IMG/VR virus record: IMGVR_UViG_3300047409_000788
Coordinates: 1 to 53,391 of that record
Source: a virus
Lineage: Duplodnaviria; Caudoviricetes
Direction: 5' to 3' (one strand)
DNA length: 53,391 bases
Part shown: piece by piece, positions 1,363 through 53,391 of the stretch
Layout of the letters: every line of letters starts with the position of its first letter
Position numbering within the stretch: position 1 is the stretch's first letter
Position numbers and translations under genes: made by a program
Notes under the pieces: generated by a model
Seen by the model: the letters and a program-made list of their open reading frames with translations, nothing else
The model's database searches: none
Told to the model about the DNA's origin: nothing

Positions 1363-2799
1363 TCACCGATCGTACACCAGGAACGGCAAAATCCGCCCGT
1401 CCGAACTGCCGCCATCGATCGCCGGGCTGAGCCCCCCGAGCGACACCAGGCCATTGCCCTTCCACATGGTCCGGATCACCACCGGATAACTCGTCGTATT
1501 GAGGTCGAGGGCGGTCCCCGTCCCCAGATAGACCAGGCCTTCGAGCGTCGCCATTTGCACGTTCCGGAGCTTCACCCCCTGACTGTTTTCCGCGCCATGC
1601 AGGTACGCGAGTTGGAGGTTGAGCAAGCCGGTCTGATGCTCAATGCGGACCAGATAGCCCGGACTATTGGTGCTCTGCTCCCAGCGCACATGCAAGAGCG
1701 CCAGATTCCAGCTCTGAACCGTGGTCGTGGTATCGACCCACTTGAGGCCATCACTGCCGCGCGCCCAGGCCTGATCGCCCTCAAACGTGACATTGCTAAG
1801 ATTGACGCCGCTATCGATCAGGACCACGGGTTGCACCATCGCCGTGGCCGTGAGGGTGAGATCGCGAAACATGGTATGGTCGAGGTCCACTGCGCTGTTC
1901 GGGTCGCCGGAAATCTGGAGGGGAATATCCCCGTAAATTTCCGCCCCTTCGACCAGGTTATTATCCCTCCCATGGAGCCACAGGCCAATACTGGTCGCCC
2001 CCGTCCAGGCCTGGTCCGCACCGATCTGGACATCCGTCATCAGGAACCCCGAACAGTCCACCAGGTTCACCCCCACCTTTTGCACCGTGGTATTCGTGGT
2101 GAGAATCGAGAGACCCCGGAGCGAGGAGCGGAAATTGATCCCGGTGCCGTTGGCAAAATGAAACACCCCGTTGGTGCTTCCGCCCGTGGGCGCATAGTGC
2201 ACCATCGTCGAGGCTTTCCCGGCGCCGGTAATTTGGATGCCGCTGGCCGCCGCCAAGACGGGCGCCGTGAGCTGGTAATGCCCGGGCGGGAGCACATACG
2301 TGGTACTGCCTTGCCAACTAGTCAGGGCGGTATCCCATCCGGTCCAGGGCGTCGCCGCCGAGCCATCCCCCGCCGTACTCAAGTCGCGCACGTTGACCGG
2401 GGTATAGAGCAGCGTGAGCTTGCCCGTGCCGGTGTGCCAGGTCGCCGACTCCGTCATCGGCGGGCTGTTGAGGGTCAGCGTCACGCCGGAGTTAATCTGC
2501 ACCACCGTGCCCGTGGGGGCCCAGAGGGTCAGCGTGGCGGGCACGGTCACATTCCCCGCTAACACCCAGACGCCGGCTTTCAGCCACAGCGTTTTCCGCG
2601 CCGTGCCCTGGGCCGCAATCGCGGCGTTGAGCGTCGTATGGGTCAACGCGCTGCCATAGGCCGGTAAGGTGACATCGACCAGGGAGGCAGGCTCTTGCAT
2701 CATCGCTCTATATGTCTGGCTGTAACCATTTGTATAGAATATGGTTACAGCAAAAATGGGGAACAAAAATAGCTTAAAAAAACCCCAGTTGAGTCGCAT
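1363..2799 (-). CDS. Beta-helix (pectate-lyase-like) tailspike/appendage protein A with N-terminal signal peptide
   Basis: Hydrophobic N-terminus ending GYS-QT; about 100-aa domain shared with the 10162 and 11895 ORFs; LPPGHY and beta-helix-like repeats. Confidence 0.65.
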   Translation of the reverse strand: MRLNWGFFKLFLFPIFAVTIFYTNGYSQTYRAMMQEPASLVDVTLPAYGSALTHTTLNAAIAAQGTARKTLWLKAGVWVLAGNVTVPATLTLWAPTGTVVQINSGVTLTLNSPPMTESATWHTGTGKLTLLYTPVNVRDLSTAGDGSAATPWTGWDTALTSWQGSTTYVLPPGHYQLTAPVLAAASGIQITGAGKASTMVHYAPTGGSTNGVFHFANGTGINFRSSLRGLSILTTNTTVQKVGVNLVDCSGFLMTDVQIGADQAWTGATSIGLWLHGRDNNLVEGAEIYGDIPLQISGDPNSAVDLDHTMFRDLTLTATAMVQPVVLIDSGVNLSNVTFEGDQAWARGSDGLKWVDTTTTVQSWNLALLHVRWEQSTNSPGYLVRIEHQTGLLNLQLAYLHGAENSQGVKLRNVQMATLEGLVYLGTGTALDLNTTSYPVVIRTMWKGNGLVSLGGLSPAIDGGSSDGRILPFLVYDR

Positions 2800-3535
2800 A
2801 GTCCCTCCTCAATCTAAGTCTTGATGTTGGATCTTTCCTATATTGTTCGAGGAGTATCTGCTTCCTCGCACAATGAAAATAGAATCCTGCACTTACAGCA
2901 CTCGGAAGCGACAGCCTATAATGTAGCTGTCGCTTTGTTCCATAGGGGCCGCCATTATTTGCACTTACTGTTGTATGGATGCCAATACTTGCACAGAGCT
3001 TACCAAACTCCTGTACAAATCCATGAGCACCGGCAAACCTCAGATAATTGTCTCGACACTTCTTTTTTTTGCTCACTATCCCCAGCGAAATGGATCCATC
3101 CGTATCCATGAGCCCTGCCAGGAACGCCAGTCGTGCGCCCTCTGACGCCTTCCAGATATACTGCGGCATGCGCTTCTTCTCATTCGTTGCACATAGGAGA
3201 AACTGGGTCAGTGGGATACTGTTCCACTGCACGATATAGATAACCGTTCCTTGATTGACAATCCGTTGCCCTATTCGCGCTTCACGCATCTCCGGGAAGA
3301 ATGCCTTGATCTCTGCGTTACACCTCGTGCCAATTTCTTCCTCGGCACATGCCATGCGCACATAGTAGCGCTTTTTCTCCGGCGCATACGCTGCGTACCC
3401 ATCTCCAAGAAAAGCCCCAAAGAAATACGAGAGCGGACTGAGATCGCGCAAGAACCAAGATGCCCAGGCGGTAGAACCTGCCCAGGACCACGGCAGATGT
3501 TTCGGACCAGATACGGTATGCTTACTGCTAGCCAT
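2774..3535 (-). CDS. Free-standing intein-type (DOD) LAGLIDADG homing endonuclease
   Basis: Motifs YFFGAFLGDG and FLAGLMDTDGS; no intein splicing termini; RBS AGGAG before ATG at 3535; AT-rich. Confidence 0.85.
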   Translation of the reverse strand: MASSKHTVSGPKHLPWSWAGSTAWASWFLRDLSPLSYFFGAFLGDGYAAYAPEKKRYYVRMACAEEEIGTRCNAEIKAFFPEMREARIGQRIVNQGTVIYIVQWNSIPLTQFLLCATNEKKRMPQYIWKASEGARLAFLAGLMDTDGSISLGIVSKKKKCRDNYLRFAGAHGFVQEFGKLCASIGIHTTVSANNGGPYGTKRQLHYRLSLPSAVSAGFYFHCARKQILLEQYRKDPTSRLRLRRDYATQLGFF

Positions 3536-3566
3536 GCTCATCTCCTGCATAGATGGGTGTGGTCAG

Positions 3567-3959: not shown

Positions 3960-6476
3960 CTACGCAGGGACCTGCACCCCACTCACGGCATGCACATGGT
4001 TGCCAAACGGCCCGGGCCCGCCCAGCGTCCCTAGGGCGCGCACCATGAACCACGCATCGGCGCTCAAGAGATTGGCCACGACCATGGACGTCCCCATCGT
4101 CGCATCCAGGGCCGCCAGCAGCGCAAAATGTGCCTCATCCAGTGGCGAGCGCCAGACCTCGAACCCCAGGAGGGTATCGCCGGCCGGCAGCCCTGGCAAA
4201 CTCCACGTGAGCCCAAAGATGTCCGGCCCCGCGACGGCCACGCCACTGAGCCACGGCCCCGTGGGCGGCCCCGCCGAGACGGTCAGCGGCGGCGCCGGCG
4301 GCAGGGGATTGTCCTGCGGCTCCGGGTAGTCGTACAGGGTGGGGACGTAGACGGACCCGGCGAGGCGGTACCCGTCCTGATCCTGGGTGACCTGTTCGAT
4401 GACCAGATGATGCAGACTCGTGTTGGTCACGCCGAGTGCCCACAGATCGCCGGTCACGGGCGGCACACTGAGCGGCACGTCCAACAGCACTGCGCCCCAG
4501 GGGCCGCTCGGCGTGACCACGGCCCGCGTCTCCATGAGGTTCGTCGCCATATGGCGCACCAACACGCTATAGCTGGTGCTCGGCACCAGCGTCGCGATCG
4601 TGCCCAGCACGAGCCGCTCGGTCGTGCTGTCGTCGCCCAGAAACCCGGACACTCCGCGCGCAAAGTTGGTGGTGGGATAACTGACGGCGACATGATCCAG
4701 CGGCTCCGAGACCAGGGCGCCGAGCGGGGCCGTCCAGGCCACATGGCGTTGCACGAGCCGCAGGCGTTCGAGCAAATACCGCGCCATCCAGTAGGCATGC
4801 GCGAAACTGGTCAGACTATACAGCGTGACGGCGGGGGCTTCCCGCTGCGGCTCGCTCTCCGTCCCTGGGGCGCGATAGGTCAGGAGATGGGGACGGAATC
4901 CCATCGCCTCATCCGGAAACTGGACGAAAATCGTATTGGGCGGCAGCCCGTCCCCCGCCCCCTGGGACGGCCGGGCACTGCCTTCCACCATATTCCCAGG
5001 GCTACTGTAGAGCAGTCCCGGCTCCCCCGCCTGGTCGATCACGAGCTTGAGGCCACTCTGCGAGGGCACGAGCGCCGCCCGGCCTTCACTGAGGAGGATA
5101 TTGATCCAATCCGGCGCCGGCCGCCGATCATTGATGAGGAGGTCACAGCGATCCTTGGGAAAGCCGACATGGCTGCCGGCCTGGGTGGCCCAATACGCCG
5201 CCGCGGCCAGAAAGGAGGGCAGATCGAGCGTGGCGGGATCGACGCGATGGCCCAGCCCCACCCGGACATTCGTGAGCAGATCATAGAGGACCCAGGCCCG
5301 GTTGTTACTCCAGGCCGTGGTAAACGTGGTGCCATTCCAGATGGGGACCAGCCGCCCATAGAGAAACGCCGACCCTCGCATACTGTCAAACGACTGAATC
5401 TGCGCTGAGGAGATGCCGCGAAAGGCGAGCAGGGGCTGCCCGAGATACAGCGGGTCGCCCCCTTGCTCTTCCATCACGTTGTAGAGCGTGGGCAAGACGC
5501 CTTCCTGGTTGGTGGTATCGAGGAGCCGCAGGCGGAAGAGCCATTGCGTGGAGTCGGGCAGGTCATAGCGCCGGGTGGCAAAGAACTGGGGACTTTGGGT
5601 CGTGCCACTCCACGTCAGCGTCGCATCGGCCACACTCCAGGTGGCATCGGTGATGCGCCGAAAGTCCACGCTGAGATGTTGCGTCGCCGCCCCACCGCCG
5701 GCCGTCCGGAGCACCGGGATCGTGAGAAACAGGGTGACGGCGTTGGTGCGCGTGCCACGGGTTTGATAGATGACATCTTGCGCCAGGGGGAGTTGGCGCC
5801 CGTCCGTCCACACCTGCGACAGGGTGGCGAAGTCGGGGTGAATGAGGGTGGCGTTGTCGGCCCCGCCGAGCCGCACATACGTTTCAATGCCCGCGTACTG
5901 ATTGACGTCGATATCGTCAATCTGCGCATCCTTCATGCCCGAGATAGGGCCTTCTCCCATGCTGTAGAGAATGCCAAAGGTCAGGGCCCGGGTACTCGGC
6001 GCTACCGCACACCGCGTCGTGAGGATGTGCCCGTACACGCGCTGGGTGCCGTAGCATAAGGACTTTGGGGTGCCCTGGGCGGTGGTGTTTGTGCGTCCGC
6101 TAATGCCGTAAGCCGCTTCCGTTTTGCCTTCCGTCTGGTGCGGGGTAGGCATCAGCGCCCGCAGGACATACCCGAGGCCCAGGCTGACGGCGGAGCTGAC
6201 TACGGCGGTCAGGGCCGCACTGGCGATGATGCCCCAAATCGTGGCGCCCGCGGCGAGGGTCGTAAACAAGGCGCCGGTTTTGAGGTAGACCCGCAGGCGG
6301 TCGCTCTGCTGGGGTTCGTAGGCCGGCCAGTCGTCACGGAATGCTCCATTGACCATGACGGCGGTGATGTGCTCGTAAACGTCGGGGCGAAACCAGGTGC
6401 CCAACGTCTGCCCTGGGACGGCAGGGGCCTGGAGATGGTGTGGCTCGTCCAGGGGGGCGAGGAACGTCAGGTGCAT
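3960..6476 (-). CDS. Tail tip/central fibre protein (lambda gpJ-like, N-terminal gpI-like region fused)
   Basis: YGTQRV, GEGPI, WSNNRAWVLYDLLTN..GLG motifs, C-terminal FN3-like segment; position in the tip module. Confidence 0.8.
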   Translation of the reverse strand: MHLTFLAPLDEPHHLQAPAVPGQTLGTWFRPDVYEHITAVMVNGAFRDDWPAYEPQQSDRLRVYLKTGALFTTLAAGATIWGIIASAALTAVVSSAVSLGLGYVLRALMPTPHQTEGKTEAAYGISGRTNTTAQGTPKSLCYGTQRVYGHILTTRCAVAPSTRALTFGILYSMGEGPISGMKDAQIDDIDVNQYAGIETYVRLGGADNATLIHPDFATLSQVWTDGRQLPLAQDVIYQTRGTRTNAVTLFLTIPVLRTAGGGAATQHLSVDFRRITDATWSVADATLTWSGTTQSPQFFATRRYDLPDSTQWLFRLRLLDTTNQEGVLPTLYNVMEEQGGDPLYLGQPLLAFRGISSAQIQSFDSMRGSAFLYGRLVPIWNGTTFTTAWSNNRAWVLYDLLTNVRVGLGHRVDPATLDLPSFLAAAAYWATQAGSHVGFPKDRCDLLINDRRPAPDWINILLSEGRAALVPSQSGLKLVIDQAGEPGLLYSSPGNMVEGSARPSQGAGDGLPPNTIFVQFPDEAMGFRPHLLTYRAPGTESEPQREAPAVTLYSLTSFAHAYWMARYLLERLRLVQRHVAWTAPLGALVSEPLDHVAVSYPTTNFARGVSGFLGDDSTTERLVLGTIATLVPSTSYSVLVRHMATNLMETRAVVTPSGPWGAVLLDVPLSVPPVTGDLWALGVTNTSLHHLVIEQVTQDQDGYRLAGSVYVPTLYDYPEPQDNPLPPAPPLTVSAGPPTGPWLSGVAVAGPDIFGLTWSLPGLPAGDTLLGFEVWRSPLDEAHFALLAALDATMGTSMVVANLLSADAWFMVRALGTLGGPGPFGNHVHAVSGVQVPA

Positions 6477-6877
6477 GGCAGAAAGCCTTTCCACCGCAAA
6501 CCATGGCGAAACCACCGCCGCCAGGGGCCTTGATCGATGGCAAACCGGGCCACGCCATTAGTCAGCCAACTGCAATGAAACCCCCAGGTGGACGCCACGA
6601 AGAGTCCGACATGGCGGGCCGTGGGTTCGGGGCTAAGGCGCGCGAGCATGACATCAAAGGGCTGGTAGGGCGGCGGGATGATGGTAAAACATGCGTGCCC
6701 CTCTTCGGCCGTGGGCGGGAGGGCAATACCACTCTGCGCAAACGCTAGGACCACAAGGCCATAGCAACCTAACCCGGTCGTAGGGTCAAGTCCCCCCTGA
6801 CACCACGGCACCTGCCGCAGGACCAGGGCTTGTAGAGAGGCCCGCACCGGCTCCGGATCAGGCAGGGGCAGCGGCAT
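6467..6877 (-). CDS. NlpC/P60-like tail tip protein (gpK-like)
   Basis: GLGCYGLV and HVGL..FH catalytic pattern; directly upstream of the J-like gene. Confidence 0.75.
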   Translation of the reverse strand: MPLPLPDPEPVRASLQALVLRQVPWCQGGLDPTTGLGCYGLVVLAFAQSGIALPPTAEEGHACFTIIPPPYQPFDVMLARLSPEPTARHVGLFVASTWGFHCSWLTNGVARFAIDQGPWRRWFRHGLRWKGFLPCT

Positions 6878-9026: not shown

Positions 9027-9527
9027 TTACAAGATGCTGGCCCGTCGGAGATCGGGCGCCCCGGGTTCCCCCTCCGCGCTGTAGAGGGTGCGTGGTAACA
9101 CCTCGTTGAGGCCATACTCCAACCCACAGTGCACCGCAGCCATCGTCCAGTCCCAGTCCGCCGTCAGCATCAGGAGGCGGAGGGTGTCCGCCTCGGTCAC
9201 GAGCCCCATGCGATCCAGGTGCACAATCTGTAAGGTAATCGGCTGGCCAAAGAGGTCGTGCTCCTCGAGATAGGCGCCGATCTGGCCCTGGATATTCGCC
9301 ACCGTGATGGTGACCGCCGGTAAGCCCTGCTGGCTCGTCTGCTCCATGCCTTCCCAGCGCATGGGCACGGGTTCATACGTGTGGCCGGCCAACACAAAGG
9401 GCTCTTGCACATCGGCGAGATAGAGCGTGGTCCCGGGGGCAATGGTGACCACGGCCGCCACCGCAAAGACGCCGCCCCCACCGAGGGCGTTCAGCGCACT
9501 GATGATTGAGGAGCTCAAATGTTTCAA
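9027..9527 (-). CDS. Minor tail/hub protein (gpL-like)
   Basis: TTG start after AGGGGA; GHTYEPVPM, VTITVANI motifs; located between the distal tail and K-like genes. Confidence 0.65.
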   Translation of the reverse strand: MKHLSSSIISALNALGGGGVFAVAAVVTIAPGTTLYLADVQEPFVLAGHTYEPVPMRWEGMEQTSQQGLPAVTITVANIQGQIGAYLEEHDLFGQPITLQIVHLDRMGLVTEADTLRLLMLTADWDWTMAAVHCGLEYGLNEVLPRTLYSAEGEPGAPDLRRASIL

Positions 9528-9546
9528 TTTAATTTCCCCTGCACCA

Positions 9547-10119
9547 TTACGGCACAAACTCCAGTAGCGTGACGCCCTCGTGACTATACAGGTGCTCGGC
9601 CAGGTTGCTGGCCGAGAACAGCACCTCCCCCTTGAGCGCAAACGTCACCTTAAAGACACACCGATACGTGGCCGTGAGGGACCCCACCAGGGGGGAGGGA
9701 AGGGTAATCTGCCCCGCCGCGCCATCGATCCCCGGCGTGGGGACCACCAACACCGTATTGCAGTAGACCTGTAAATCCCCCGTAATATAGCGATTAGGCA
9801 GCAAAAACTCGGTCTGCACGCCATCGCCATACCCCACATAAAGGGGGGTACTGATCGTCCCCGCTTCGCCGCCGTCCCAAAAGAATGGGGTATCCCCTTG
9901 CACAAAGGTGACAAACCCAAACAGGGTATCCATGCGGGCTTTATCCGCCTGTGCGTCCCGCAAGGTAAAGCGGGAGAGGGGGCGCCGATACTGGCGCCGG
10001 AACTGGCTGGCGCCGGCCCCGAGGGGCGTCGCGAGGTGGGGCGCAATGAGTTCCTGGGTAACCGGGTAATGGGGCGTAAACCCTAGTTGAATTTCGGGAC
10101 TGACATCAAAGTAGGGCAT
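9547..10119 (-). CDS. Distal tail protein (DUF2460-like)
   Basis: QG..PFFWD and GYGDGVQTEFLL motifs typical of DUF2460/GTA distal tail proteins. Confidence 0.7.
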   Translation of the reverse strand: MPYFDVSPEIQLGFTPHYPVTQELIAPHLATPLGAGASQFRRQYRRPLSRFTLRDAQADKARMDTLFGFVTFVQGDTPFFWDGGEAGTISTPLYVGYGDGVQTEFLLPNRYITGDLQVYCNTVLVVPTPGIDGAAGQITLPSPLVGSLTATYRCVFKVTFALKGEVLFSASNLAEHLYSHEGVTLLEFVP

Positions 10120-11883: not shown

Positions 11884-11894
11884 ATCGAGGACTC

Positions 11895-41459: not shown

Positions 41460-41462
41460 GCC

Positions 41463-42294: not shown

Positions 42295-42300
42295 GAGGCT

Positions 42301-43694: not shown

Positions 43695-43736
43695 AGCCGC
43701 TCCCGGCGGCTGGGCTTTCGCTAGAGCGAAGTGTCA

Positions 43737-44012: not shown

Positions 44013-44069
44013 ACTGGCTCCTCCTGCGGGGGCGCAGCCCCCGGGTGGTGGTTTCGCCGATGAAGCTGG

Positions 44070-44273: not shown

Positions 44274-44350
44274 GATCGTTCTCCTGTGTGTGGGGCCGCA
44301 CGGGCGTCAGGACGCGTACACGTCATTTCGTGTACGCGAAAGGACGGCGG

Positions 44351-44569
44351 CTAATAGTGGTTGCTCTCCTCGCCGAGCGCTTCTCGCACCGCATGGGCTC
44401 GGATACGCTCGGCGGTCTCGTCGGTCCAGAGCTCGAGGCACACCCCGCATTCCCATACCGGCAAAACAAGATGAAGCGTGGGACCACCGAGCAGCGGGAT
44501 CGCCTGCTCACGGTGGGTCACGGTTGCCTCATTACACGTGCCACAGAATGGACACACTATTGTTGCCAT
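44351..44569 (-). CDS. YgiT/MqsA-type zinc finger protein
   Basis: CPFC..VLPVWECGVC.E. Confidence 0.65.
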   Translation of the reverse strand: MATIVCPFCGTCNEATVTHREQAIPLLGGPTLHLVLPVWECGVCLELWTDETAERIRAHAVREALGEESNHY

Positions 44570-44582
44570 GGCCTTCCTCCTT

Positions 44583-44615
44583 TGTGTGTAAGGGGGAGCA
44601 GCCTCCCTGCTCCCC
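44583..44615. repeat. 33-bp direct repeat copy 1 (hairpin immediately upstream of an RBS)
   Basis: TGTGTGTAAGGGGGAGCAGCCTCCCTGCTCCCC identical to 45061-45093. Confidence 0.9.
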
Positions 44616-44625
44616 CGGTGGCGGC

Positions 44626-44823
44626 TCAGGCGCCCTCGCGCGCCTGTCTGCCTTCGTGTTTGCCGTGCCAGTAGGCGAGCCACCACTGGCTCTCGTCCTC
44701 GACCTCCTCGGGCACATCCGGCGTGTGCCCAGCCTCCTCGACCGGCCCTTCGAGGGCCTCGACATAGCCCAGGCGGTAGGCCTGCGGATAGGCGGCGCAG
44801 CTCGTACAGTGGGGCTCAGGCAT
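44626..44823 (-). CDS. Small hypothetical protein
   Basis: AYRLGY..AYWHGK; overlaps the upstream stop. Confidence 0.5.
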   Translation of the reverse strand: MPEPHCTSCAAYPQAYRLGYVEALEGPVEEAGHTPDVPEEVEDESQWWLAYWHGKHEGRQAREGA

Positions 44824-45046
44824 GGCAGTCACCGTCACAGACCGTGTGGCAGCGTGGGCAGAGCGTCCCCGTCACGACCGGGCGCACGAGCCGCCAGCCG
44901 TACACGCCGGGGGCGCGGAGCATCGCCTGCGCCTGGGCGGTGTCAGGCAGTGTCCAGGTGCGACCGTCGAAACGGCCCCCCACCTTGCGAGCGTTGGCGA
45001 CGCCCCTGGAAAACATCTGGCCGCTGGCTATCGTAATGGTGGCCAT
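44816..45046 (-). CDS. Small Cys-rich hypothetical protein
   Basis: RBS GAGGAG; CPRCHTVCDGDC. Confidence 0.55.
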   Translation of the reverse strand: MATITIASGQMFSRGVANARKVGGRFDGRTWTLPDTAQAQAMLRAPGVYGWRLVRPVVTGTLCPRCHTVCDGDCHA

Positions 45047-45060
45047 CCTCGTCTCTCCTC

Positions 45061-45093
45061 TGTGTGTAAGGGGGAGCAGCCTCCCTGCTCCCC
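45061..45093. repeat. 33-bp direct repeat copy 2
   Basis: Identical to 44583-44615. Confidence 0.9.
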
Positions 45094-45100
45094 AGTGGCG

Positions 45101-45748
45101 TTACCGGCCTTTGCACCACCCCTCAGCGGTCTTGTGGGACCACCAGGAGCGGCCGTCCTTCCCCTGATTCAGTTTCATCGGCGTGGCGTGGGGGACACAC
45201 CACCCGTCCGGTGTCGGCTGGGCGCCGTGGGGCACGCTCGGCGGACTGGCCGGTGCCGCCGGCGTCTCCATCAGGCCCTCGATCTGGGTGAGGTGTGCCT
45301 GGAACTCCGCCCACGTGGTGCCGCGCGCCGTCAGCAGCGCGTCTCTGCCGCGCACGGTCCCTTTCAGCGTGATCGAGAACGTGGCTTCCGGCATCGACGC
45401 CGCCGTGCGAGGGGCGGGTGACGCCGTCGGCTCCTCCAGGCTGGGCGTCGTGCTGGGTTCCTGGAGCCGGGCGGTGGCCCGCAGGTACAGGCCGCGCGCC
45501 AGCCGATGCTTGCACAGGTGTTCGGGGGCCTGCAGGTCGCCACAGGCGCAATGCCCGTTGACGGTGTACCAGGTCGTGTCATCACTGGCGCGCACCTGGC
45601 ACAGGCCGGCATCGTCGAAGAAGACGCCGCCGTGCAGGACGATGGCGGTGGCCCGCTCTAAGCGGCCATGGAGCGTGGCCGGCAACTTGGCGGAAGCAAT
45701 CGCGGACACCTGCAAAAGTGCGTCGAGGAACGGGGTTGCGGTCGCCAC
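45101..45748 (-). CDS. SWIM zinc-finger protein
   Basis: Y.V..CACGD..CKHRLA; C-terminal C..H..WWSH..WC. Confidence 0.75.
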   Translation of the reverse strand: MATATPFLDALLQVSAIASAKLPATLHGRLERATAIVLHGGVFFDDAGLCQVRASDDTTWYTVNGHCACGDLQAPEHLCKHRLARGLYLRATARLQEPSTTPSLEEPTASPAPRTAASMPEATFSITLKGTVRGRDALLTARGTTWAEFQAHLTQIEGLMETPAAPASPPSVPHGAQPTPDGWCVPHATPMKLNQGKDGRSWWSHKTAEGWCKGR

Positions 45749-45828
45749 GGTCAGGTCCTTTCTCTGGGCCGGGGCTCTTCACCCCGGCATCGTTCGGTTG
45801 TCGAGCGTTCTCTTGTACTCATGATAGG

Positions 45829-46062
45829 CTACCGCAGGGCTGCCAGGGCCGCTGTCACTAATGCCTGCTGGGAGACGTTTTCCTGCAATCCGTATTCACT
45901 CCAACTCCAGCCGCGTCCCTCGTCCTGCCGCAGCGTGATGCTCTCGGCCACATACCGGGCGCGCTGCGCCGGCGTGGTGGTGTGGGTCATGGCCCGGCGG
46001 TGCAAACGCCGGGCCGCTGCAGCGGACTTGTCAGAGGAGATCGTCTCGTGTAAAGTATGCAT
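45829..46062 (-). CDS. Early-region hypothetical protein
   Basis: RBS AAGGA. Confidence 0.5.
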   Translation of the reverse strand: MHTLHETISSDKSAAAARRLHRRAMTHTTTPAQRARYVAESITLRQDEGRGWSWSEYGLQENVSQQALVTAALAALR

Positions 46063-46178
46063 GATCTTTTCCTTCTGGTTGGGGGGAAGGGTGCTTTTCG
46101 GGGCCTGGGGGAAGCCGCCAAGCTGAAACCCCCAGGCCCGCGCTGTCTCTCGTGGCTCATCCAACCTGACGCTCTGAT

Positions 46179-46415
46179 CTACACGTCTTCCCGCATTGTG
46201 CCCGCCGCAAACCGTGCCTGGATGGTCGTCAGGTCCCATCGGGTGACGCCCGTGACGCCATACGCCTGTTGCCGGAGCGTGCTCACCTCGATATGGACCT
46301 GGGGGCCGGCAGGACTGGCCACCCGCCGGACACGGTCAACCACATAGATGGTATCCAGGGGCGTCCCGCGCTGGGTGAGGTCCTGAATCTTCATGCCGAC
46401 TTTCAATGTTGCCAT
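46179..46415 (-). CDS. First gene of the leftward early operon, hypothetical
   Basis: RBS AAGGAG. Confidence 0.55.
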   Translation of the reverse strand: MATLKVGMKIQDLTQRGTPLDTIYVVDRVRRVASPAGPQVHIEVSTLRQQAYGVTGVTRWDLTTIQARFAAGTMREDV

Positions 46416-46443
46416 GATCGTCTCTCCTTGTCTGTGGTGTTAT

Positions 46444-46494
46444 GAGGTTTCGTCGTTTTCGACTTATCAATACGGGTACACACCCGCAGACCTC
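46444..46494 (-). ncRNA. Type III hammerhead ribozyme (U3-A8 core variant)
   Basis: GAGGU-C^-UGCGGGU-GUGU-ACCCGUA-UUGAUAA-GUCG-AAAA-CGAC-GAA-ACCUC: all three stems pair and the cleavage triplet is GUC. Confidence 0.85.
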
Positions 46495-46605
46495 CTGTCG
46501 TCTTGGCCTGTCCCTCCTTCCCCCGTGGCTTCTCAGTGTTGAGCCCACTTGTCCCAGAGTCGGAAGCGGCACCCGCTTGCGCGGTCGCTGTTCTGTTATG
46601 CTCTA

Positions 46606-46634
46606 ATAATAACGTATACGTAATTACCATGCAA
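46606..46634 (-). promoter_or_regulatory. Leftward early promoter with palindromic operator in the spacer
   Basis: TTGCAT-17nt-TATTAT; ACGTATACGT palindrome at 46612-46621. Confidence 0.7.
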
Positions 46635-46784
46635 GGGATTTCTGTATCAAAATGAGGTTTTTTGTGTAGAAATTTTTCTCGACACACGCTAACGTAGGCG
46701 CTATACTCTTTTCTAGTATTTGCTAGATGTTCTAGCAAATACTGTCACCTATGCGTGAGGAAAAGCATGCCAAGAGGGAGCGGC

Positions 46785-47105
46785 ATGGATGATCACGAGG
46801 TTATGCTACTTTTCGCCGAACGCGTTGCGCAGGCGAGAGACAAACGCGGCTGGAGCCAGCAACGGCTGGCCGAGGAAGCCCGCACGACGTATCAAACGAT
46901 TTGGCGCATTGAGAAAGGATCGCATAAGGATGTCGGGATGCTACTCGTGCGGCGGTTAGCCCAGGCATTAGGGGTAGGTGTGGATCGGCTTATTGGAACC
47001 TATGAGGACTCTAGCCGGCGGGCCGGTAGCGACCAGGGTGGCACCGAGTGCGCTACCGGCAAAACCAAGACCACTCTTGAGAGAGAGGTCTTGCAGGGAG
47101 TATAG
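46785..47105 (+). CDS. XRE-family HTH regulator
   Basis: RDKRGWSQQRLAE..TIWRIEKG..LAQALGV. Confidence 0.85.
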   Translation: MDDHEVMLLFAERVAQARDKRGWSQQRLAEEARTTYQTIWRIEKGSHKDVGMLLVRRLAQALGVGVDRLIGTYEDSSRRAGSDQGGTECATGKTKTTLEREVLQGV

Positions 47106-47107
47106 CA

Positions 47108-47743
47108 ATGTCGAAACGTGGCGGCTATATCTATGCTATAGGTATGCAGGAAACGTCCTATGTGAAAATCGGAAGTACGCGAGCACCTATAGCAAAACGT
47201 ATGCAAGAACTGCAAGTTGCACATCCACTCCCCTTGGAAACATTGGCCGTCATAGAAGTCGAGTCCGATCTTGCGCGTATTGAGGCTCAGGTCCATAAGT
47301 TTCTCGCCAAAGAATGGCAACGGGGGGAATGGTTTGACACGGTGATGAATCCTGACCGGCTGGCTCTTTTGGTCAAGGATGCCGTTAGGGTCGTCCTTGA
47401 AGAAGGCGCTACCCATCCTGTACGTAAATCGCCGAGAGATTTTCCTCTGGGACGACGACTGAGGCTAGTACGGCGTGCAAAGAATTACACCCAGCACGAG
47501 CTTGCACAGATGTCCGGGATGAATGCGATTTCTCTTTCACGGCTGGAATCCGGCAATGCGGAGCATGCCTATGCTCGCACGGTACGTGATCTCGCCCAGG
47601 CGCTTGGGGTAAGTGCTGATTATCTGCTGGGATTGACGGAGGAGTCAGGGATGGAACACTCGGAAGAGGCCGCCGCTGAAGCGCTGGTTGGGGCCGGAAC
47701 TTCAGCGGCAGACGATGCCCTCACGAACGAGGGCATCGCGTAG
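47108..47743 (+). CDS. GIY-YIG (T5orf172/Mug113-like) domain fused to an XRE HTH
   Basis: GYIYAI..VKIG..R..L..GEWF; RRAKNYTQHELA..SRLESG..LGVSADYLLG. Confidence 0.8.
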   Translation: MSKRGGYIYAIGMQETSYVKIGSTRAPIAKRMQELQVAHPLPLETLAVIEVESDLARIEAQVHKFLAKEWQRGEWFDTVMNPDRLALLVKDAVRVVLEEGATHPVRKSPRDFPLGRRLRLVRRAKNYTQHELAQMSGMNAISLSRLESGNAEHAYARTVRDLAQALGVSADYLLGLTEESGMEHSEEAAAEALVGAGTSAADDALTNEGIA

Positions 47744-47770
47744 AAGTGTAGCAGAAAGGAGGCCAAATAG

Positions 47771-48076
47771 ATGCCCCAGTCGGTGAAGAAACACGAGCAG
47801 CTCCAACGCCAGCTCGCCGACACGCAGGCCGAGCGGCAGAAGCTGGCCGAGCAGGCGGCGCGCCTCGAAGCCGCCCTGCGCCACATGCAGCGGGAGGAGC
47901 GCCGGAAGCTCCAGGCGGAAGTGGGGAAAATAGCGGACGCGGCGGGGCTGCTGGCGTATGACCTGCCGACGCTAATGCAGGCGTTTACGCGGCTGGCGGC
48001 GGCGTTGGGGGCGGGCGCTGACACACCTCCTGGTGCGACGGGTGACGCGGACGCCCCCCTTTCTCCCAGTGGGTAG
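47771..48076 (+). CDS. TraC/TraD-like relaxosome accessory protein (putative)
   Basis: Coiled coil then RRK..VGKIADAAGL..L..AF..LA, resembling Ti-plasmid TraC/TraD; upstream of the relaxase. Confidence 0.5.
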   Translation: MPQSVKKHEQLQRQLADTQAERQKLAEQAARLEAALRHMQREERRKLQAEVGKIADAAGLLAYDLPTLMQAFTRLAAALGAGADTPPGATGDADAPLSPSG

Positions 48077-48124
48077 ATGGGGATGCCGATTGCAACTCTC
48101 TCAGTAGAAGAGGAGGAATCACCC

Positions 48125-48265
48125 ATGCCGTACCGCTCGCAAGACGAAAACGAGTATTTGCGGGATACCGAAGAGGATGTCCTGGAGGAAGCATGTCTGA
48201 TCCAAGAAGAAGAGGACGTGAAACCTGCACCGCCGGTTGTGCCGCTCCCTGCCACGCACCAGTGA
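48125..48265 (+). CDS. Small acidic protein
   Basis: RBS GAGGAGG; D/E-rich. Confidence 0.35.
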   Translation: MPYRSQDENEYLRDTEEDVLEEACLIQEEEDVKPAPPVVPLPATHQ

Positions 48266-48369
48266 GGAGGTCGCGGACCGAGGCGATTTACGGCATGTGG
48301 AAGTGGGCAACTTACCAGCCTGGGCGCAGGGCTTGCCCGCTCTTACAGTCCTGATGGCGGGGAGGAGGC

Positions 48370-49230
48370 ATGAGTACCACGACGAGGAAGAGACGCAAAG
48401 GGGGATGTATGGTTTGTGTTTCGCCAGCGCGCGTATGGATCGAGGCCAGACTAGGGGAGGAGCACTCGACGGCGTGTATTGCCTGGGAAGCCTTGCGCCG
48501 GGATATTTCTGTGACCGCGACAGCACTCTATCGCCATCAAAAAGACTGTCTGACCCCTGGGAAAAAGCTGCACCAATTTGATGCCTCTCCCTGGTGGTAT
48601 ATGCCTCCCCCGGTGACATCGTTTCCTGTGACATGGCCCCCAGAAGTCCTGCTCATTCGTGGGCTCCCTGGCACGGGAAAAACGCGGCTGGCGCGGTGTT
48701 TTGAAGATACGCATTTCCATGTCGAGAATGATCAGTTCTTTCTTCAACCCTACGGGGATCTGCGGTACGAGAAACATCGGGCCTCCGAGGCATTTCTTTG
48801 GTGCTATCTTTCCGCAAGGGACGCGTTGAGTGATGGGGTCTCTATTGTGGTCGCCAACACGTTTCTCTGGAATCGGAAGCTGGATGATTACTATGCACTC
48901 GCTTCCAGATATGGTGCGACGGTGCGAGTCCTCACGCTGCCTGATACCCTTCCACGCTCTCTCCGAGAAGCACGGGAAAATGGCAGCACTCTTTTCGAAC
49001 GGATACCCATTTCACGCATAGGGCGGATGCGCAATCTGTGGGAGGATACACTGGCTCCAGAGGGGTATCCCGGTCTGTCCTTTACCCTAGAACATATCTC
49101 TGCAGATGCAGGGGGTATCCCATTGCCCGTGGTGCCCTATTTTTGTCAGCCTGGGCTGTGTCCGCATGCAGAACACTATGACTTTGCCGGTACGGCAGAA
49201 CGGCTGCGAAAACTGGCCCTGGGATGGTAG
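48370..49230 (+). CDS. P-loop kinase (AAA_33/PNK-like) with N-terminal CxxC..RH..C domain
   Basis: LLIRGLPGTGKT, VVANTF; N-terminal CMVC..RHQKDCL. Confidence 0.7.
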   Translation: MSTTTRKRRKGGCMVCVSPARVWIEARLGEEHSTACIAWEALRRDISVTATALYRHQKDCLTPGKKLHQFDASPWWYMPPPVTSFPVTWPPEVLLIRGLPGTGKTRLARCFEDTHFHVENDQFFLQPYGDLRYEKHRASEAFLWCYLSARDALSDGVSIVVANTFLWNRKLDDYYALASRYGATVRVLTLPDTLPRSLREARENGSTLFERIPISRIGRMRNLWEDTLAPEGYPGLSFTLEHISADAGGIPLPVVPYFCQPGLCPHAEHYDFAGTAERLRKLALGW

Positions 49231-49235
49231 GGGGA

Positions 49236-49277
49236 AACGGTGCAAAGACCGCTAAGTGTTTCTCTAGCGAGAAACAC
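49236..49277. other. Candidate MOBQ-type origin of transfer (oriT)
   Basis: GTGTTTCTC-TAGC-GAGAAACAC hairpin, close to the RSF1010/R1162 oriT inverted repeat GTTTCTCGAAGAGAAAC, 19 nt upstream of the relaxase start. Confidence 0.55.
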
Positions 49278-49296
49278 CCAACAATAAGGCGGGGAA

Positions 49297-50433
49297 ATGG
49301 CGGTCTACCATGTCGATGCCAGTTACATTTCGAAAGGCAAAAGTGAGGGCGGAGCCAGTCGGTTTTCTGCCTACTTGGAACGGCGAGACCCCGAACACGC
49401 AACCCAGCATGCGCGGTACTTAGCACGGGATGGGAAAGGGCAGGAGGACTTGGTGGCAAGTGCATCGGCGTATCTTCCCCAATGGGCCAAAAATGGAGAG
49501 GGGTTTTGGTTGGCCGCAGATCGGTATGAACGCCAAAATGGCGTGGTCGCGCGTGTGTATCAATTTACCTTGCCACGGGAATTGTCAGCGGAGGGACAGC
49601 GCGCCTTGGCAGATGATTTACGAGCGGTGTTTTTTGAGGGCTACCCCCAGACGTGGGCTATTCACAATCCCCCGGCGCAGGATGGGTCAGGCGAGAACGC
49701 CCACTTGCACATCATGTTTTCGACACGAAGGGAGGAGGAAACACGGACAGGTGGCCCAAAGGTATGGTTTAGTCGCGCGGCGAATGCAGGACAGGATGCG
49801 AGGAGTGGAGGTGTCAGAAAAGATGGATGGTGGGATCAAAAGGCCGCCCTGCAGGGCGTGCGATATGAAACGGCCATTCTCATCAATGCGGCCCTAGAGA
49901 GGGAGGGGATAGCGAAAGCGGTGTCGCATGATCGGTTGCGAGGGCAAGGACACCAACGACAAGGAGTGCACTACCTTCAGTTTGGCAAGGCTGAGCAGCG
50001 GTCGAGGCTGCTTGCCAAGCAAGAAGCCTTGCATACGAACGGCACCCATAAGCAAGAAGAAGCGGCTGCGCGGCAGGCATGGGAAGACCAGAAAAGAAAG
50101 GAGGGGCTGAGTATATTGAGTCGAGAGCATCTCGTGGCATCATCCCGTGCCCGGTACTGGGCGCATCATCCTGACCCTAGGAGGATACGTCCACAGGAAT
50201 GGGAAGCGCGGCGCATCGACCTTACCGACGCCTTCGCCCAGACGCAGACGCGCCTCCACACCCTCGACGCCCAGGCGCGACTCCTGACGCGGATGGTGGG
50301 CCAGGCGCCGGCGCCTGGGGGCACGCCGGCCGCACGGCCGGCGCACGCCGTCGAGGAGGAGGAGACCCAGGGCATCCAGCGGGGCCGCCCCCGGCTCCAC
50401 ATCTTTGACGAGGAGGTCGGCTATGGCCGATAG
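49297..50433 (+). CDS. mobA: MobA/MobL-family (MOBQ) relaxase
   Basis: MAVYH N-terminus, AY, FW..AD..ER, TLPREL, WAIH..NAHLHIMFSTR. Confidence 0.88.
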   Translation: MAVYHVDASYISKGKSEGGASRFSAYLERRDPEHATQHARYLARDGKGQEDLVASASAYLPQWAKNGEGFWLAADRYERQNGVVARVYQFTLPRELSAEGQRALADDLRAVFFEGYPQTWAIHNPPAQDGSGENAHLHIMFSTRREEETRTGGPKVWFSRAANAGQDARSGGVRKDGWWDQKAALQGVRYETAILINAALEREGIAKAVSHDRLRGQGHQRQGVHYLQFGKAEQRSRLLAKQEALHTNGTHKQEEAAARQAWEDQKRKEGLSILSREHLVASSRARYWAHHPDPRRIRPQEWEARRIDLTDAFAQTQTRLHTLDAQARLLTRMVGQAPAPGGTPAARPAHAVEEEETQGIQRGRPRLHIFDEEVGYGR

Positions 50434-53233
50434 CTGGGGCGCTAAGGGCATCGCCGTGGGGGCCGGGCTGCTCTGCGGCCTCAGTCTCGCCACGGAACTC
50501 TTCGCCTATCACGCGCGCCTGTCCCCCGTCCTGGGGCCGCCGCTGTGGCGCCAGAGTCTCCTGGCGTTCTACCCCCCGTGGGCGGTCCTGGGGTGGGCGT
50601 GGCAGTGGGCCGGCCGGGTGCCGGCGGCGTTTCAGTGGCCCCTGGTGGCCGGGGTGGTGCTCGCCGGGGTGACGATCGCGAAGACCTGGCCACGGGCGCG
50701 GAGCACGACCCAGCCGCAGGCGCACTGGGCAAGTTGGGTCGAACTGAAAAAGGCCGAGCTGCTTGGGCGCACAGGCGTGGTGCTCGGCACGAGCGGGAGA
50801 GCCCTCCTCCAGTATGGGGGCGTGGGGCACATCCTCGTGGTGGCGGGGACGCAATGCCACGCCCCAGGGGCAAAGATTCTCATGGGGGATGGAGCCCTCA
50901 AATGCGTTGAAACGATTACGGTAGGTGACAAGGTAATGGGGCCTGACTCATTGCCGCGCACAGTGCAGGCGCTGTTCCACGGGGATGGGGAGATGGTAAG
51001 GATTCTTCCCAAGAAGGGCGAGCCTTTTACCGTGAGTCTTGACCATATCCTCGTTCTTAAGCGCACAAACAAGATACGCTATGCCCATAACCCCGTCTAT
51101 CCCCGCGCAAGCAAGGAAGGAGAAATTGTCGAAATATCGGTGCGGGATTGGCTTGCATCAAGCAAGAAATTCAAGCACCTCTATAAGCTATTTCGGGTAG
51201 GCGTTGAGTTTCCTATGCAGGAGCCTCTCCCTATCGACCCCTATTTACTTGGGGTCATTCTGGGCGACGGCACTATACGCCGCTACGGTGTCGTTATCAC
51301 CAATAACAATAAGGGGAGGTTAAAGCGAAAGATTGCAAGCATTCTCGATAAAACAGATTTGCATATCTCTGGTGCATATAATGACCAGCGCAATGGTACG
51401 CACACCTTTGCGATCACCTCCCGAACAGTAGCGAGGCATCCAGGCAATGGAAAAAACAGAATCCTTCGGTGGGGCAGGGAGCATAATAGCCTGACCAAAG
51501 CTCTGAAAGCGCTCGGCCTGGCGGGAGCACGGTCTGGAACAAAATTTATCCCAGGGATATACAAAGTGGCGAGCAAAGAAGCCCGGCTATGGATATTAGC
51601 TGGGCTCATGGACACCGATGGCTCCCTATCTGGTAGCAACCTCAAGTGCCTCGCAAAAAACTACGACTACATTACGAAATCTCAGGCATTGGCCGACGAC
51701 GTCTGTTTTATCGCCAGAAGTCTGGGGTTGGCGGCATACAAAAAGGAGTGTGAGAAAGGATATAAGACCGCATCTAGTGCCTTCCGTGCGACGTACTATC
51801 GCGTGTCTATTTTTGGCAATACCAGCACCATTCCATGCCAAATAGAAAGTAAACAAGTGCGACTAAGGAGGCGCCAATGGGGACACCCCCATCTCTACGA
51901 GAAGACCCAGAAGCTTGAGTATAAGCATTCCCCGCTTGTGACGGGGTTTACGGTAGAGGCGGCTGGAGTAGGTCCATGCTGCGGGGTGACCTGTGACGGG
52001 GATCAGCGCTACCTCATGGGTGATTTTACGGTCACGCATAACAGCGGGAAGACCGTCTCGATTGTGCTGCCAACCTTGCTGGCGGAAGAACCAGGGCAGG
52101 CACGGTCCATGATTGTCCATGACCCGAAGGAAAACCTGTACCCGAAGTCGGCGGGCTATCGGAGTACGCTAGGGAAGGTGGTACGGCTGGCCCCGTTGCA
52201 TCCGGAGACCGACTTTCTCAATCCCTGGGATGCCGTGCGGCTGGGCACCGAGGATGAATTCCGTGATGTGGAACTCATTGCGACTTACCTCACGAACCCG
52301 GAAGGCAAGGCCAGCCGGGATGATGTCACGGAGCATTTTCAGGAACTGGTCAACCAGTTTTTCTGCGGCGTCTTTCTCTATGGGCTGCATACCGGCATCG
52401 CGACCACGGGCGGGGCGTTTAACGACCTCGTGAACGGGACGGCCTGGCGCGACCTCCTCACCGTCATGGAGGCCCATGGGCACCCGGAAGTCCAGCGGGC
52501 GGCCGTGATTGCCTCACGGCCGGGGGACAGGGAGCTCGGCGCCTTACAGACGACGGCGGCCCGGGCCCTCCGCATCTTTAGTGACCCCCGGATTGCCCAC
52601 ATGACGAGCACGAGCAGTTTCAGTCTGGCGGAGTTACGCGAGGCGGAGCAGCCGTGCACCGTCTACCTGAGTGTCCCCTTTGGGGACCAACAACGGTTGC
52701 GCCCCCTCACGCGGCTCCTCTTACGGCAGTTGCTGGACCATTGTACGTCCAGGTTGCATGGCTGGAAGCACCGCATGCTCGCCATGATCGAGGAGTTTCC
52801 GTCGTTGGGGCGCTTTGACCCTATCAGTGACGGACTCAACTTTGCCGCCGAGTTTGGGCTGCAATACTGCTTAATTACCCCGAGCATGGAGGAACTGATT
52901 GACACCTACGGCAATCACCACAACCTGCTGGAGGGCTGTCGCGTGCAGGCGGTTTTTGGCCTCAGCGACGACGCCACGGCCAAACGCTTTAGCGGACGCG
53001 TTGGCACCCGGGAGCGCCGCACCCAACGGATCACAACCCAGCAAGGAGGGAGGCAGAGTCGTACAGAAGACGTGAAGGAGGAGCCCCTGCTGAACGCCAC
53101 CGGCTTTCTCGACCTGGGGGAGCGAGAGGTGGCCGTGTTTGCGGGCCGCTACAAGGTGATTTGTGAACAAAGTCGTTATTACGAGCACAAAGACTGGGCA
53201 CGGCGGGCCTTGCTCCCGCCGCCCAGGCCATGA
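50423..53233 (+). CDS. virD4: Type IV coupling protein (VirD4/TraG family) containing an intein
   Basis: N-terminal TMs, AHWAS, Walker A AGTQ/SGKT, IVHDPK, NPWD, IEEFPSLG. Confidence 0.88.
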   Translation: MADSWGAKGIAVGAGLLCGLSLATELFAYHARLSPVLGPPLWRQSLLAFYPPWAVLGWAWQWAGRVPAAFQWPLVAGVVLAGVTIAKTWPRARSTTQPQAHWASWVELKKAELLGRTGVVLGTSGRALLQYGGVGHILVVAGTQCHAPGAKILMGDGALKCVETITVGDKVMGPDSLPRTVQALFHGDGEMVRILPKKGEPFTVSLDHILVLKRTNKIRYAHNPVYPRASKEGEIVEISVRDWLASSKKFKHLYKLFRVGVEFPMQEPLPIDPYLLGVILGDGTIRRYGVVITNNNKGRLKRKIASILDKTDLHISGAYNDQRNGTHTFAITSRTVARHPGNGKNRILRWGREHNSLTKALKALGLAGARSGTKFIPGIYKVASKEARLWILAGLMDTDGSLSGSNLKCLAKNYDYITKSQALADDVCFIARSLGLAAYKKECEKGYKTASSAFRATYYRVSIFGNTSTIPCQIESKQVRLRRRQWGHPHLYEKTQKLEYKHSPLVTGFTVEAAGVGPCCGVTCDGDQRYLMGDFTVTHNSGKTVSIVLPTLLAEEPGQARSMIVHDPKENLYPKSAGYRSTLGKVVRLAPLHPETDFLNPWDAVRLGTEDEFRDVELIATYLTNPEGKASRDDVTEHFQELVNQFFCGVFLYGLHTGIATTGGAFNDLVNGTAWRDLLTVMEAHGHPEVQRAAVIASRPGDRELGALQTTAARALRIFSDPRIAHMTSTSSFSLAELREAEQPCTVYLSVPFGDQQRLRPLTRLLLRQLLDHCTSRLHGWKHRMLAMIEEFPSLGRFDPISDGLNFAAEFGLQYCLITPSMEELIDTYGNHHNLLEGCRVQAVFGLSDDATAKRFSGRVGTRERRTQRITTQQGGRQSRTEDVKEEPLLNATGFLDLGEREVAVFAGRYKVICEQSRYYEHKDWARRALLPPPRP
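50855..52042 (+). mobile_element. Full-length intein (396 aa) with LAGLIDADG endonuclease
   Basis: Starts CHAPGAKILMGDG, block B SLDH, PYLLGVILGDG and LAGLMDTDG, ends VTHN followed by Ser; lower GC than the exteins. Confidence 0.93.
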
Positions 53234-53247
53234 CAGGAGGTGGACCC

Positions 53248-53391
53248 ATGTTCGTAGGGAGCGCGTGGGCAGCGGCCTCGGCGATTCCGATTGCCGCCAC
53301 CATCAACATTTTAGTCCTGGCCGTGCAAGCGGCCGGCGGGGGCTTTATCGCCCTGAAATGCCTCTACCTGGGCATCACCTGGCGCCGGGGG
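53248..53391 (+). CDS. Probable VirB2/TrbC-like pilin, truncated by the window end
   Basis: RBS AGGAGG; SAWAA then hydrophobic helices, immediately after the T4CP gene. Confidence 0.4.
   Translation, partial: MFVGSAWAAASAIPIAATINILVLAVQAAGGGFIALKCLYLGITWRRG

Follow-up and report, generated by a model that had tools for sequence, protein, structure and literature searches.

A soil metagenome contig that carries siphovirus morphogenesis genes beside a conjugative transfer module

The viral metagenome record IMGVR_UViG_3300047409_000788 (53,391 bases, analysed in its entirety and referred to here as the window) carries on a single contig the morphogenesis genes of a siphovirus and, to their right, the relaxase and coupling protein of a conjugative system, the latter interrupted by an intein. 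The question raised by this locus is whether one element can spread both in particles and by mating, as proposed in an initial annotation that placed both routes under one switch, or whether two mobile elements have come to lie side by side. The record is classed as linear with a CheckV completeness of 73%, both of its ends are assembly ends, and its overall GC content is ~0.62. On balance, we favour the reading that the window is a prophage-conjugative-element composite, in which two mobile elements of separate ancestry have been joined. The first part (1363-42977) would contain the morphogenesis genes of a prophage of siphovirus type, with relatives among the Xp15/Nanhaivirus-like phages that have a DUF4055 portal, and the second part (from ~43.7 kb to beyond the contig end) a conjugative element of a soil-metagenome family with its own putative XRE-controlled promoter/operator. 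The grounds for this reading are a capsid gap at the boundary of the two parts, the separate relatives of each part, the limit of phage homology at 42977, a cellular-type purM gene, tetranucleotide usage, and the precedent of tandems of phages with integrative and conjugative elements (ICEs). The window appears to be one real DNA stretch of an uncultured soil bacterium, probably of chromosomal location, and its host lineage is possibly Tectomicrobia-like.

Window proteins were searched against the Pfam, PHROGs and NCBIfam families. For comparison, we used 80 of the 99 relaxase relatives found on soil metagenome contigs (relaxase loci), 80 of the 176 portal relatives found in IMG/VR, taken as the portal gene with 10 kb on either side (portal-related viral loci), and the nearest viral contig relative, a 65.5-kb contig designated G001, which was searched whole.

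Physical linkage of the two modules

Virion and conjugation genes are physically linked on one DNA molecule. The stretch at 40.5-50.5 kb occurs in four soil-metagenome runs from four studies (X1 to X4, with word shares of 1.00, 0.93, 0.79 and 0.32, respectively; no RNA run is listed among them), of which X1 is the likely source of the record, and the Logan contigs and unitigs of these runs were placed on window positions 33392-53391. The junction at 36.7 kb, where two phage operons meet head to head, is bridged by X1 rec3 (36132-36900) and X3 rec17 (35876-36966), and the zone in which the phage part ends is bridged by X1 rec5 (40190-44612), X3 rec22 (42604-43351) and X2 rec12 (43115-43855). 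Further to the right, a single X1 unitig of 7.9 kb (45064-52995) spans a leftward operon of small genes, the regulators, the relaxase and the coupling protein. X1 depth is uniform, with values of ~9.6-10.8 in 28 of 30 bins, and the even coverage by which the initial annotation proposed to check the linkage was indeed found: depth does not change across the boundary of the two parts, and unitigs bridge every internal boundary. In X2 to X4, contig depths beyond 48.7 kb add up to lower values, and partly to zero in X4, where uncovered parts are not readable as absence.

These data bear on the possibility that the assembly is chimeric, with a phage contig falsely joined to a plasmid or ICE contig. 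Unitigs break only where a 39-nt repeat occurs (44577-44615 and 45055-45093), and its two copies offer a possible point of false joining; odd low-depth joints also occur among the contigs of the X runs. Against a false join, the two copies lie only 478 nt apart and on the same side of the phage boundary, depth is maintained along the X1 unitig chain that crosses them (10.5 at 40190-44612, 12.3 at 44586-45090 and 9.6 at 45064-52995), the boundary itself (42977-43737) is crossed by single unitigs in X1, X2 and X3, and both parts are present in runs from four studies. As both copies lie beyond the phage boundary on its right side, with equal depths across them and a flat X1 depth overall, we regard a chimera as highly improbable. 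The low-depth joints themselves connect 53337 to 40699 in X1 and X4, with nearly identical 19 filler letters, 53339 to 36553 in X2, and 38144 to 45176 in X1; they may represent rearranged relatives or artefacts and were given no weight.

A head operon without a detectable capsid gene and the separate relatives of the two parts

In both G001 and Dinoroseobacter phage R5C, the genes for portal, MuF, scaffold, coat and adaptor follow one another in this order on one strand, and the R5C coat protein matches the G001 coat gene in tblastn searches (25% identity over 388 aa, E = 1e-16). The same protein found no match in the window. When 43 coat proteins from the portal-related viral loci were combined into a profile, its best E-value among six-frame open reading frames (ORFs) of at least 40 aa in the window was 1.7, and the capsid models PF11651 and PF05065 likewise gave no match there, PF11651 being a weak test because it also misses the coat gene of G001. 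Terminase, portal, tape measure and tail tube are thus present in the window and a major capsid protein was not found in it. The tail and neck genes that the initial annotation had described as a near-complete set are in place, with weak matches in the case of tail-L, Neck1 and the tail terminator, as part of a virion set that lacks the major capsid protein.

The head operon halts after the scaffold gene and two small genes, at the point where non-phage DNA begins. Phage homologues are found up to the gene that ends at 42977, and further to the right the intein alone matches viral loci. From the window genes alone, particle formation would be impossible for want of a capsid gene. Because the head operon breaks off at the position occupied by the coat gene of its relatives, it is most likely that the conjugative element is nested in the prophage head operon (an 'ICE::phage' arrangement) or truncates it. 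What would be new here is the position of a conjugative element at the break of a phage head operon, with no recombinase nearby and in an uncultured soil lineage.

The phage part has relatives of its own. Its portal matches 1412 GenBank phage records with identities of at most 33%, the best being Dinoroseobacter phage R5C, Pseudanabaena phage Pan1 and Xanthomonas phage Xp15, and G001 shares with the window the portal (65% identity), scaffold (64%), the small gene at 42636-42977 (60%), the adaptor (45%), the tape measure and the J-like fibre protein. A search of IMG/VR with MuF gave no match. The window resembles the DUF4055-portal siphoviruses (R5C/Nanhaivirus, Xp15 and Vibrio phage MAR10, with portals 29-33% identical to that of the window) in its scaffold, MuF, adaptor and long tail module. 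It differs from them in that few of its tail genes have detectable relatives, in that its two morphogenesis operons diverge head to head whereas they are collinear in G001 and R5C, and in the absence of the P22-like coat gene that both of these carry.

Alternatively, the phage part may be a degraded prophage that lost its capsid, lysis, replication and integration genes by deletion or recombination, and that happens to adjoin a conjugative element in a chromosome, or to reside on a large plasmid, with no functional interplay between the two. In the 41.6 kb of phage DNA we recognised no genes for a capsid, lysis, replication, a repressor or an integrase, and the head-to-head layout, unlike that of G001 and R5C, would fit such a remnant. 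However, the long phage ORFs are all intact and have high third-position GC, several soils contain the element with 95-100% identity, and its homing endonucleases and intein suggest recent activity. We consider a mere remnant to be improbable.

The relatives of the two parts occupy separate contexts, as expected of a composite. Neither the relaxase nor the coupling-protein extein was found in any of the 80 portal-related viral loci, in which matches are confined to intein residues 171-564, or anywhere in G001. Searches of IMG/VR with the relaxase (as a single protein and as a profile), with a coupling-protein profile and with a 32-nt exact pattern from the right end yielded no other contig, and none of the window genes to the left of 42977 has a match in the 80 relaxase loci at E = 1e-5. 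The relaxase family was found solely on soil metagenome contigs. A large protein collection contains 37 relatives with 39-61% identity, one of them a protein from a metagenome-assembled genome (MAG) of Candidatus Tectomicrobia, and identity to relaxases of PLSDB plasmids reaches at most 37%, over the N-terminal 60% of the protein. A profile and pattern scan of genome contigs from 185,579 species gave no match; the profile found none in the five genomes with the nearest purM genes or in 17 genomes of the G005 phylum, and only 10 distant matches, of at most 117 bits, in 401 genomes of the G004 order. Among GenBank phages, the relaxase matched one record and the coupling-protein C-extein two, all weakly. 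One GenBank entry labelled 'Bacteriophage sp.' (MT835580.1) with a coupling-protein-like gene was considered as a precedent and rejected, as it has no convincing terminase (18 bits).

Base composition agrees with this separation, in that tetranucleotide usage of the two parts differs modestly. Phage windows correlate with one another at a mean of 0.75 (0.64-0.84) and with the right part, taken without the intein, at a mean of 0.62 (0.42-0.75). The right part correlates at 0.74 with relaxase locus L004, and the phage part at 0.71 with G001.

At the opposite end of the phage part, the window contains a purM gene, encoding phosphoribosylformylglycinamidine cyclo-ligase (130-1239, minus strand; NCBIfam TIGR00878, 339.6 bits against a cut-off of 236), with a GC content of 0.489 compared to ~0.63 for the phage part. 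Its nearest homologues are cellular, with 92-73% identity on soil contigs and 71% in a Candidatus Tectomicrobia MAG, and it is 60-64% identical to Entotheonella/Tectimicrobiota genes on megabase contigs; phage purM genes reach at most 39.6%. This gene is probably a flank outside the element and part of the host chromosome. A hydrophobic ORF on the minus strand (1-129, with 43 residues visible) starts 4 nt after the purM stop codon; it is unlike purN, and the usual purMN pairing is not seen.

The contrasting explanation is a genuine hybrid: one co-evolved temperate phage or phage-plasmid of ~70-80 kb that spreads by particles or by conjugation, with its own origin of transfer (oriT), relaxase, intein-bearing coupling protein and secretion system, its capsid and replication genes in the missing quarter of the genome, and purM as an auxiliary gene. 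Several observations weigh on this side and against a composite. The contiguity of the two parts, their near-equal X1 depth (~10.5 and 9.6) and the recurrence of the same junctions, at 95-100% identity, in other soil runs all fit one element as well. A completeness of 73% implies a genome of ~73 kb, the size of the portal relatives (72-79 kb). No tyrosine or serine recombinase (PF00589, PF00239) was detected in the six frames of the window, with positive controls, the left phage boundary shares no word longer than 10 nt with the zone at 42.9-46.8 kb, and the window holds no tRNA gene and no Rfam match; no boundary of an independent element is demonstrated. Because there is no integrase or attachment (att) site in the window, the independence of the two elements is not proven. 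A very divergent capsid protein might be concealed among the unannotated ORFs, and purM, which has the same orientation as the fibre gene and follows downstream after 123 nt, may be an auxiliary gene of the phage.

Further points weigh in the same direction. Homing endonucleases occur in both parts, and the nearest GenBank-phage relatives of the intein sit in phage helicase-like genes (33-37% identity). A two-mismatch copy of the candidate XRE operator half-site lies 48 nt inside the small terminase gene terS; this half-site has five matches in the window, two of which make up a palindrome upstream of the XRE gene, compared to 0.17 expected. One of the 119 neighbouring ORFs in the 12 longest relaxase loci matched Sf6_terminase (small terminase-like, E = 1.8e-6). 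Finally, a relaxase locus whose relaxase is 44% identical to that of the window (L070, on a 15.8-kb contig) contains, 7.6 kb upstream of the relaxase gene, a cassette of three consecutive minus-strand genes (L070:2-2366; 189, 177 and 291 aa, the last a Laminin_G_3 protein) that is weakly similar, in the same order, to the tail-operon segment 24951-22712 of the window. The respective counterparts are at 24370-24951, 23594-24361 and 22712-23581 (pairwise E = 6e-6, 7e-4 and 0.006), only the first gene being detected by phmmer, and the 193-aa cassette protein of the window and its L070 counterpart have no match among GenBank phages. The cassette is followed in L070 by an XRE gene, a primase-helicase, an S26 peptidase, the relaxase, the coupling protein, a pilin-like gene and VirB4.

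A hybrid nevertheless remains unlikely in our judgment. The capsid gene is absent at its expected place, transfer genes occur in none of the 80 related viral loci, the relaxase family is otherwise found in plain VirB-type contexts, purM is of a cellular type, and composition differs between the parts. Together with an XRE promoter/operator region (46416-46754) that is separate from the divergent late-gene control region (~36.55-36.74 kb), these observations speak against a dual-route element governed by one switch. The initial annotation had named two outcomes that would count against its proposal, and they diverged: in the data searched, homologues of the two modules largely fail to co-occur elsewhere, and a search between 42.3 and 47.8 kb revealed neither an att site nor a target duplication. 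The hybrid keeps some weight because no boundary of either element came to light, the gene arrangement recurs from soil to soil, and a quarter of the predicted genome lies outside the contig. Were it correct, no element before it would have combined spread in virions with transfer by mating, and it would overturn what a 2025 review states, namely that neither phage-plasmids nor prophages are conjugative.

The composite that we favour has parallels among known elements. A set of 612 curated phage-ICE tandems includes nested forms of both the ICE::Phage and Phage::ICE type (Huang et al., Sci Adv 2026, PMC13651849). As in the window, a prophage there adjoins a conjugative element on one replicon, and the ICE machinery could conduct phage DNA. 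Those tandems are described as arising by site-specific accretion with integrases and att sites, neither of which is present in the 53 kb of the window; within it, neither element is bounded by an integrase and att sites, and the far ends of both lie outside it. The window also differs from the tandems described there in its break inside the head operon at the capsid place, its uncultured soil host and the remoteness of its modules from characterised ones. Phage-plasmids of the P1, N15 and SSU5 groups also combine virion and plasmid-type genes on one molecule and are described as carrying plasmid replication and partition genes rather than conjugation genes (PMC12282955). In contrast, no member of the Rep, ParA or ParB families was recognised among the ~70 ORFs scanned in the window, which is itself incomplete, and its flank is a chromosomal-type purM. 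A composite would widen the range of the phage-ICE composites described of late to include an uncultured soil lineage, and would lead one to ask how the two elements were joined and whether conjugation also transfers phage DNA.

The transfer genes and the intein in the coupling protein

The relaxase gene (49297-50433, plus strand) encodes a MobA/MobL protein of MOBQ-like type, as initially annotated, which matches PF03389 over residues 33-222 with 70 bits against a cut-off of 26.7. Its score against the NCBIfam MobQ model NF041496 (70.3 bits) lies below the cut-off of 200, and its sequence marks it as a distant MobQ member rather than an equivalog. Two of its histidines, H123 and H136, do not vary in an alignment of 26 relatives, in which Y26 and H138 also show a conservation of at least 90%; by analogy with RSF1010 MobA, we take these Tyr and His residues to be catalytic.

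The oriT-like hairpin noted previously is located 20 nt before the relaxase start (49256-49277, plus strand) and consists of a perfect 9-bp stem with a 4-nt loop; its arms may be similar to the repeat found next to the nick site of RSF1010. Of 71 relative loci, 45 have a perfect hairpin with a stem of 7 bp or more in the 140 nt that precede the relaxase gene, compared to 4.6% of shuffled sequences and 3 of 70 in-gene stretches of the same size. In 14 loci, with 7 different stem sequences, the hairpin lies 10-21 nt from the relaxase start. These features fit an oriT repeat, and we propose the hairpin as a candidate; the relaxase would nick near it.

The coupling protein (50405-53233, plus strand) is of the VirD4/TraG type, in agreement with the initial annotation (PF02534, E = 4e-45, 155 bits; TraG-D_C PF12696, 50 bits; TrwB_AAD_bind PF10412, 42 bits), and is 30-32% identical to plasmid TraG proteins. 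The initial annotation had missed a 396-aa intein with Hint (PF05203) and LAGLIDADG (PF14528) domains (50855-52042, plus strand), which splits the P-loop (Walker A) of this protein. The intein begins with C and ends with HN, followed by S, and its exteins join as AGTQ-SGKT, an intact Walker A motif. An intein-free allele is present in X2 and X3, where a contig skips 50854-52045 and has four other letters instead (joint 50853 to 52046), encoding exactly Q-S-G-K-T with synonymous changes at the join. This precise allele is a natural empty site. When the full coupling protein was compared to GenBank phages, 300 records matched, all through the intein part.

The available part of a 2015 survey lists in its table inteins in VirB4 and VirB11, and mentions VirD4 only within the name of the system (PMC4760082). 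With its P-loop intein and the intein-free alleles present in other soils, this VirD4-type coupling protein offers a clean natural case of intein polymorphism in a conjugation ATPase. Intein splicing would restore the AGTQ-SGKT P-loop and thereby activate the coupling protein, DNA would then exit through the secretion system, and linked phage DNA could travel in cis.

The contig ends 158 nt past the coupling-protein gene, and a Logan unitig runs 1584 nt further. The last ORF (53248-53391, plus strand), which the initial annotation took for a probable pilin, comprises the first 48 residues, hydrophobic in character, of a reading frame cut by the contig end, and has no detectable family or relative. 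Its likely continuation is suggested by the neighbourhoods of the relaxase relatives. Among the 119 ORFs of the 12 longest relaxase loci, we recognised eight coupling proteins, three VirB4, two TrbL, one each of VirB8, VirB9, VirB10 and VirB11, and four S26 peptidases; regulators with helix-turn-helix (HTH) domains recur, and VirB4 and other mating-pair genes lie downstream of the relaxase. The context of these relatives is that of an ordinary VirB-type conjugative system. Because they adjoin VirB-type secretion genes, the window, by analogy, probably continues into such a system past the contig end. Taken together, the window shares with known plasmids and ICEs that combine a MOBQ relaxase, VirD4/TraG and a VirB-type (MPF-T-like) apparatus the relaxase domain with conserved Tyr and His residues, the upstream hairpin and the TraG/VirD4 ATPase, and its relaxase relatives carry, as these systems do, VirB4, B6, B8, B9, B10 and B11 as well as a TraF-like peptidase. 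It differs from them in its remote sequence identity and in the P-loop intein of its coupling protein.

Control regions and operon layout

Between the end of the phage part at 42977 and the XRE regulators lie 3.7 kb of small genes. The initial annotation had the two modules adjoining with no host gene between them; no recognisable host gene is indeed present there, but the modules are separated by two small ORFs that point rightward and by an operon of about nine genes that points leftward. The junction zone (42978-43736) contains a GC hairpin (43020-43037) and the two rightward ORFs (43151-43467 and 43464-43694), which have no match in Pfam, PHROGs or NCBIfam and which meet the leftward operon (43737-46415, minus strand) delineated from the frame plot and sequence. 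In this operon, a hairpin and a ribosome-binding site precede each gene, several products contain CxxC pairs, and the gene at 45101-45748 has a 30%-identical homologue adjoining the relaxase relative in loci L039 and L044. The 39-nt repeat mentioned above belongs to it as well: it is composed of a 9-bp GC hairpin and CACACA-AGGAG, and its two copies, which are 97% identical, each stand ahead of small minus-strand genes.

The leftward operon is separated from the rightward regulators by an AT-rich control region of ~340 nt (46416-46754, GC 0.47), with a promoter-like site at 46679-46707 and a perfect 13+13 palindrome at 46715-46743. The two XRE-type regulators recognised by the initial annotation follow on the plus strand, namely an XRE repressor-like gene (46755-47105) and a T5orf172/MUG113 gene with an HTH domain (47108-47743). 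The XRE protein would bind the palindrome and thereby gate the rightward transfer operon. Two-mismatch copies of the half-site occur at 36789-36801, inside terS, and at 48153-48165, in the spacer before the next ATPase gene, and may have arisen by chance in AT-richer patches. The regulators are followed by a 101-aa ORF (47771-48076, plus strand) and by a gene (48370-49230, plus strand) that was initially described as TraC/D-like; its product is an AAA_33/polynucleotide-kinase-like ATPase according to Pfam, PHROGs and NCBIfam, and matches neither TraC nor TraD.

The siphovirus morphogenesis genes span ~41.6 kb (1363-42977) in two operons separated by a divergent spacer of ~200 nt (36540-36740). 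The rightward packaging and head operon (36741-42977, plus strand), identified by homologues in G001 and the portal-related viral loci, bears out the terminase-portal-scaffold set described initially, with TerS (36741-37282), TerL (37293-38747), the DUF4055 portal (38752-40206), a MuF domain within the ORF at 40100-41206, the scaffold (41463-42236, phrog_206) and the two small genes that close it (42301-42639 and 42636-42977).

The leftward neck and tail operon (1363-36704, minus strand) was annotated using Pfam, PHROGs and G001 homologues. Read from right to left, it encodes an adaptor-like DnaT_2 protein (34894-35415), a putative Neck1 protein (33667-34284), a 285-aa ORF (32804-33661) with Atlas search scores of at most 0.82, a putative tail terminator (32327-32788), an HNH endonuclease (25793-26734), the tail tube (21348-22511), a tape measure of 1057 aa with an SLT domain (17077-20250), two pectate-lyase-like fibres (11895-13700 and 10162-11997), a putative tail-L protein (9027-9641), an NlpC/P60 protein (6467-6877), a J-like central fibre (3960-6515; phrog_31, E = 2e-55), a free LAGLIDADG endonuclease (2774-3550) and a further pectate-lyase-like fibre (1363-2799), as well as two Laminin_G_3 proteins. 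The likeness of the free LAGLIDADG gene to the intein endonuclease is limited to the motif region (35% over 74 aa). Two other proteins of the operon, of 1161 aa (13540-17025) and 695 aa (27936-30023), have in common diverged tandem 63-nt (21-aa) repeats, and their only family match is a PHROG of unknown function.

A simple AGGGA/TCCCT-rich repeat (1296-1364) occupies the spacer that separates purM from the adjacent fibre gene, and has an inverted relative at 40370-40480, likewise in an intergenic spacer; the repeats are of the form (AGGGAAT)n / (AGGGAGAT)n, then (CTCCCTAC)n. Because the ORF called at 40100-41206 runs through this repeat, the MuF gene probably starts near 40501. Contig depth at the 40396 repeat copy is 58-283 in all four soil runs, compared to ~10 or less for the element, which indicates that this repeat family is abundant in these soils.

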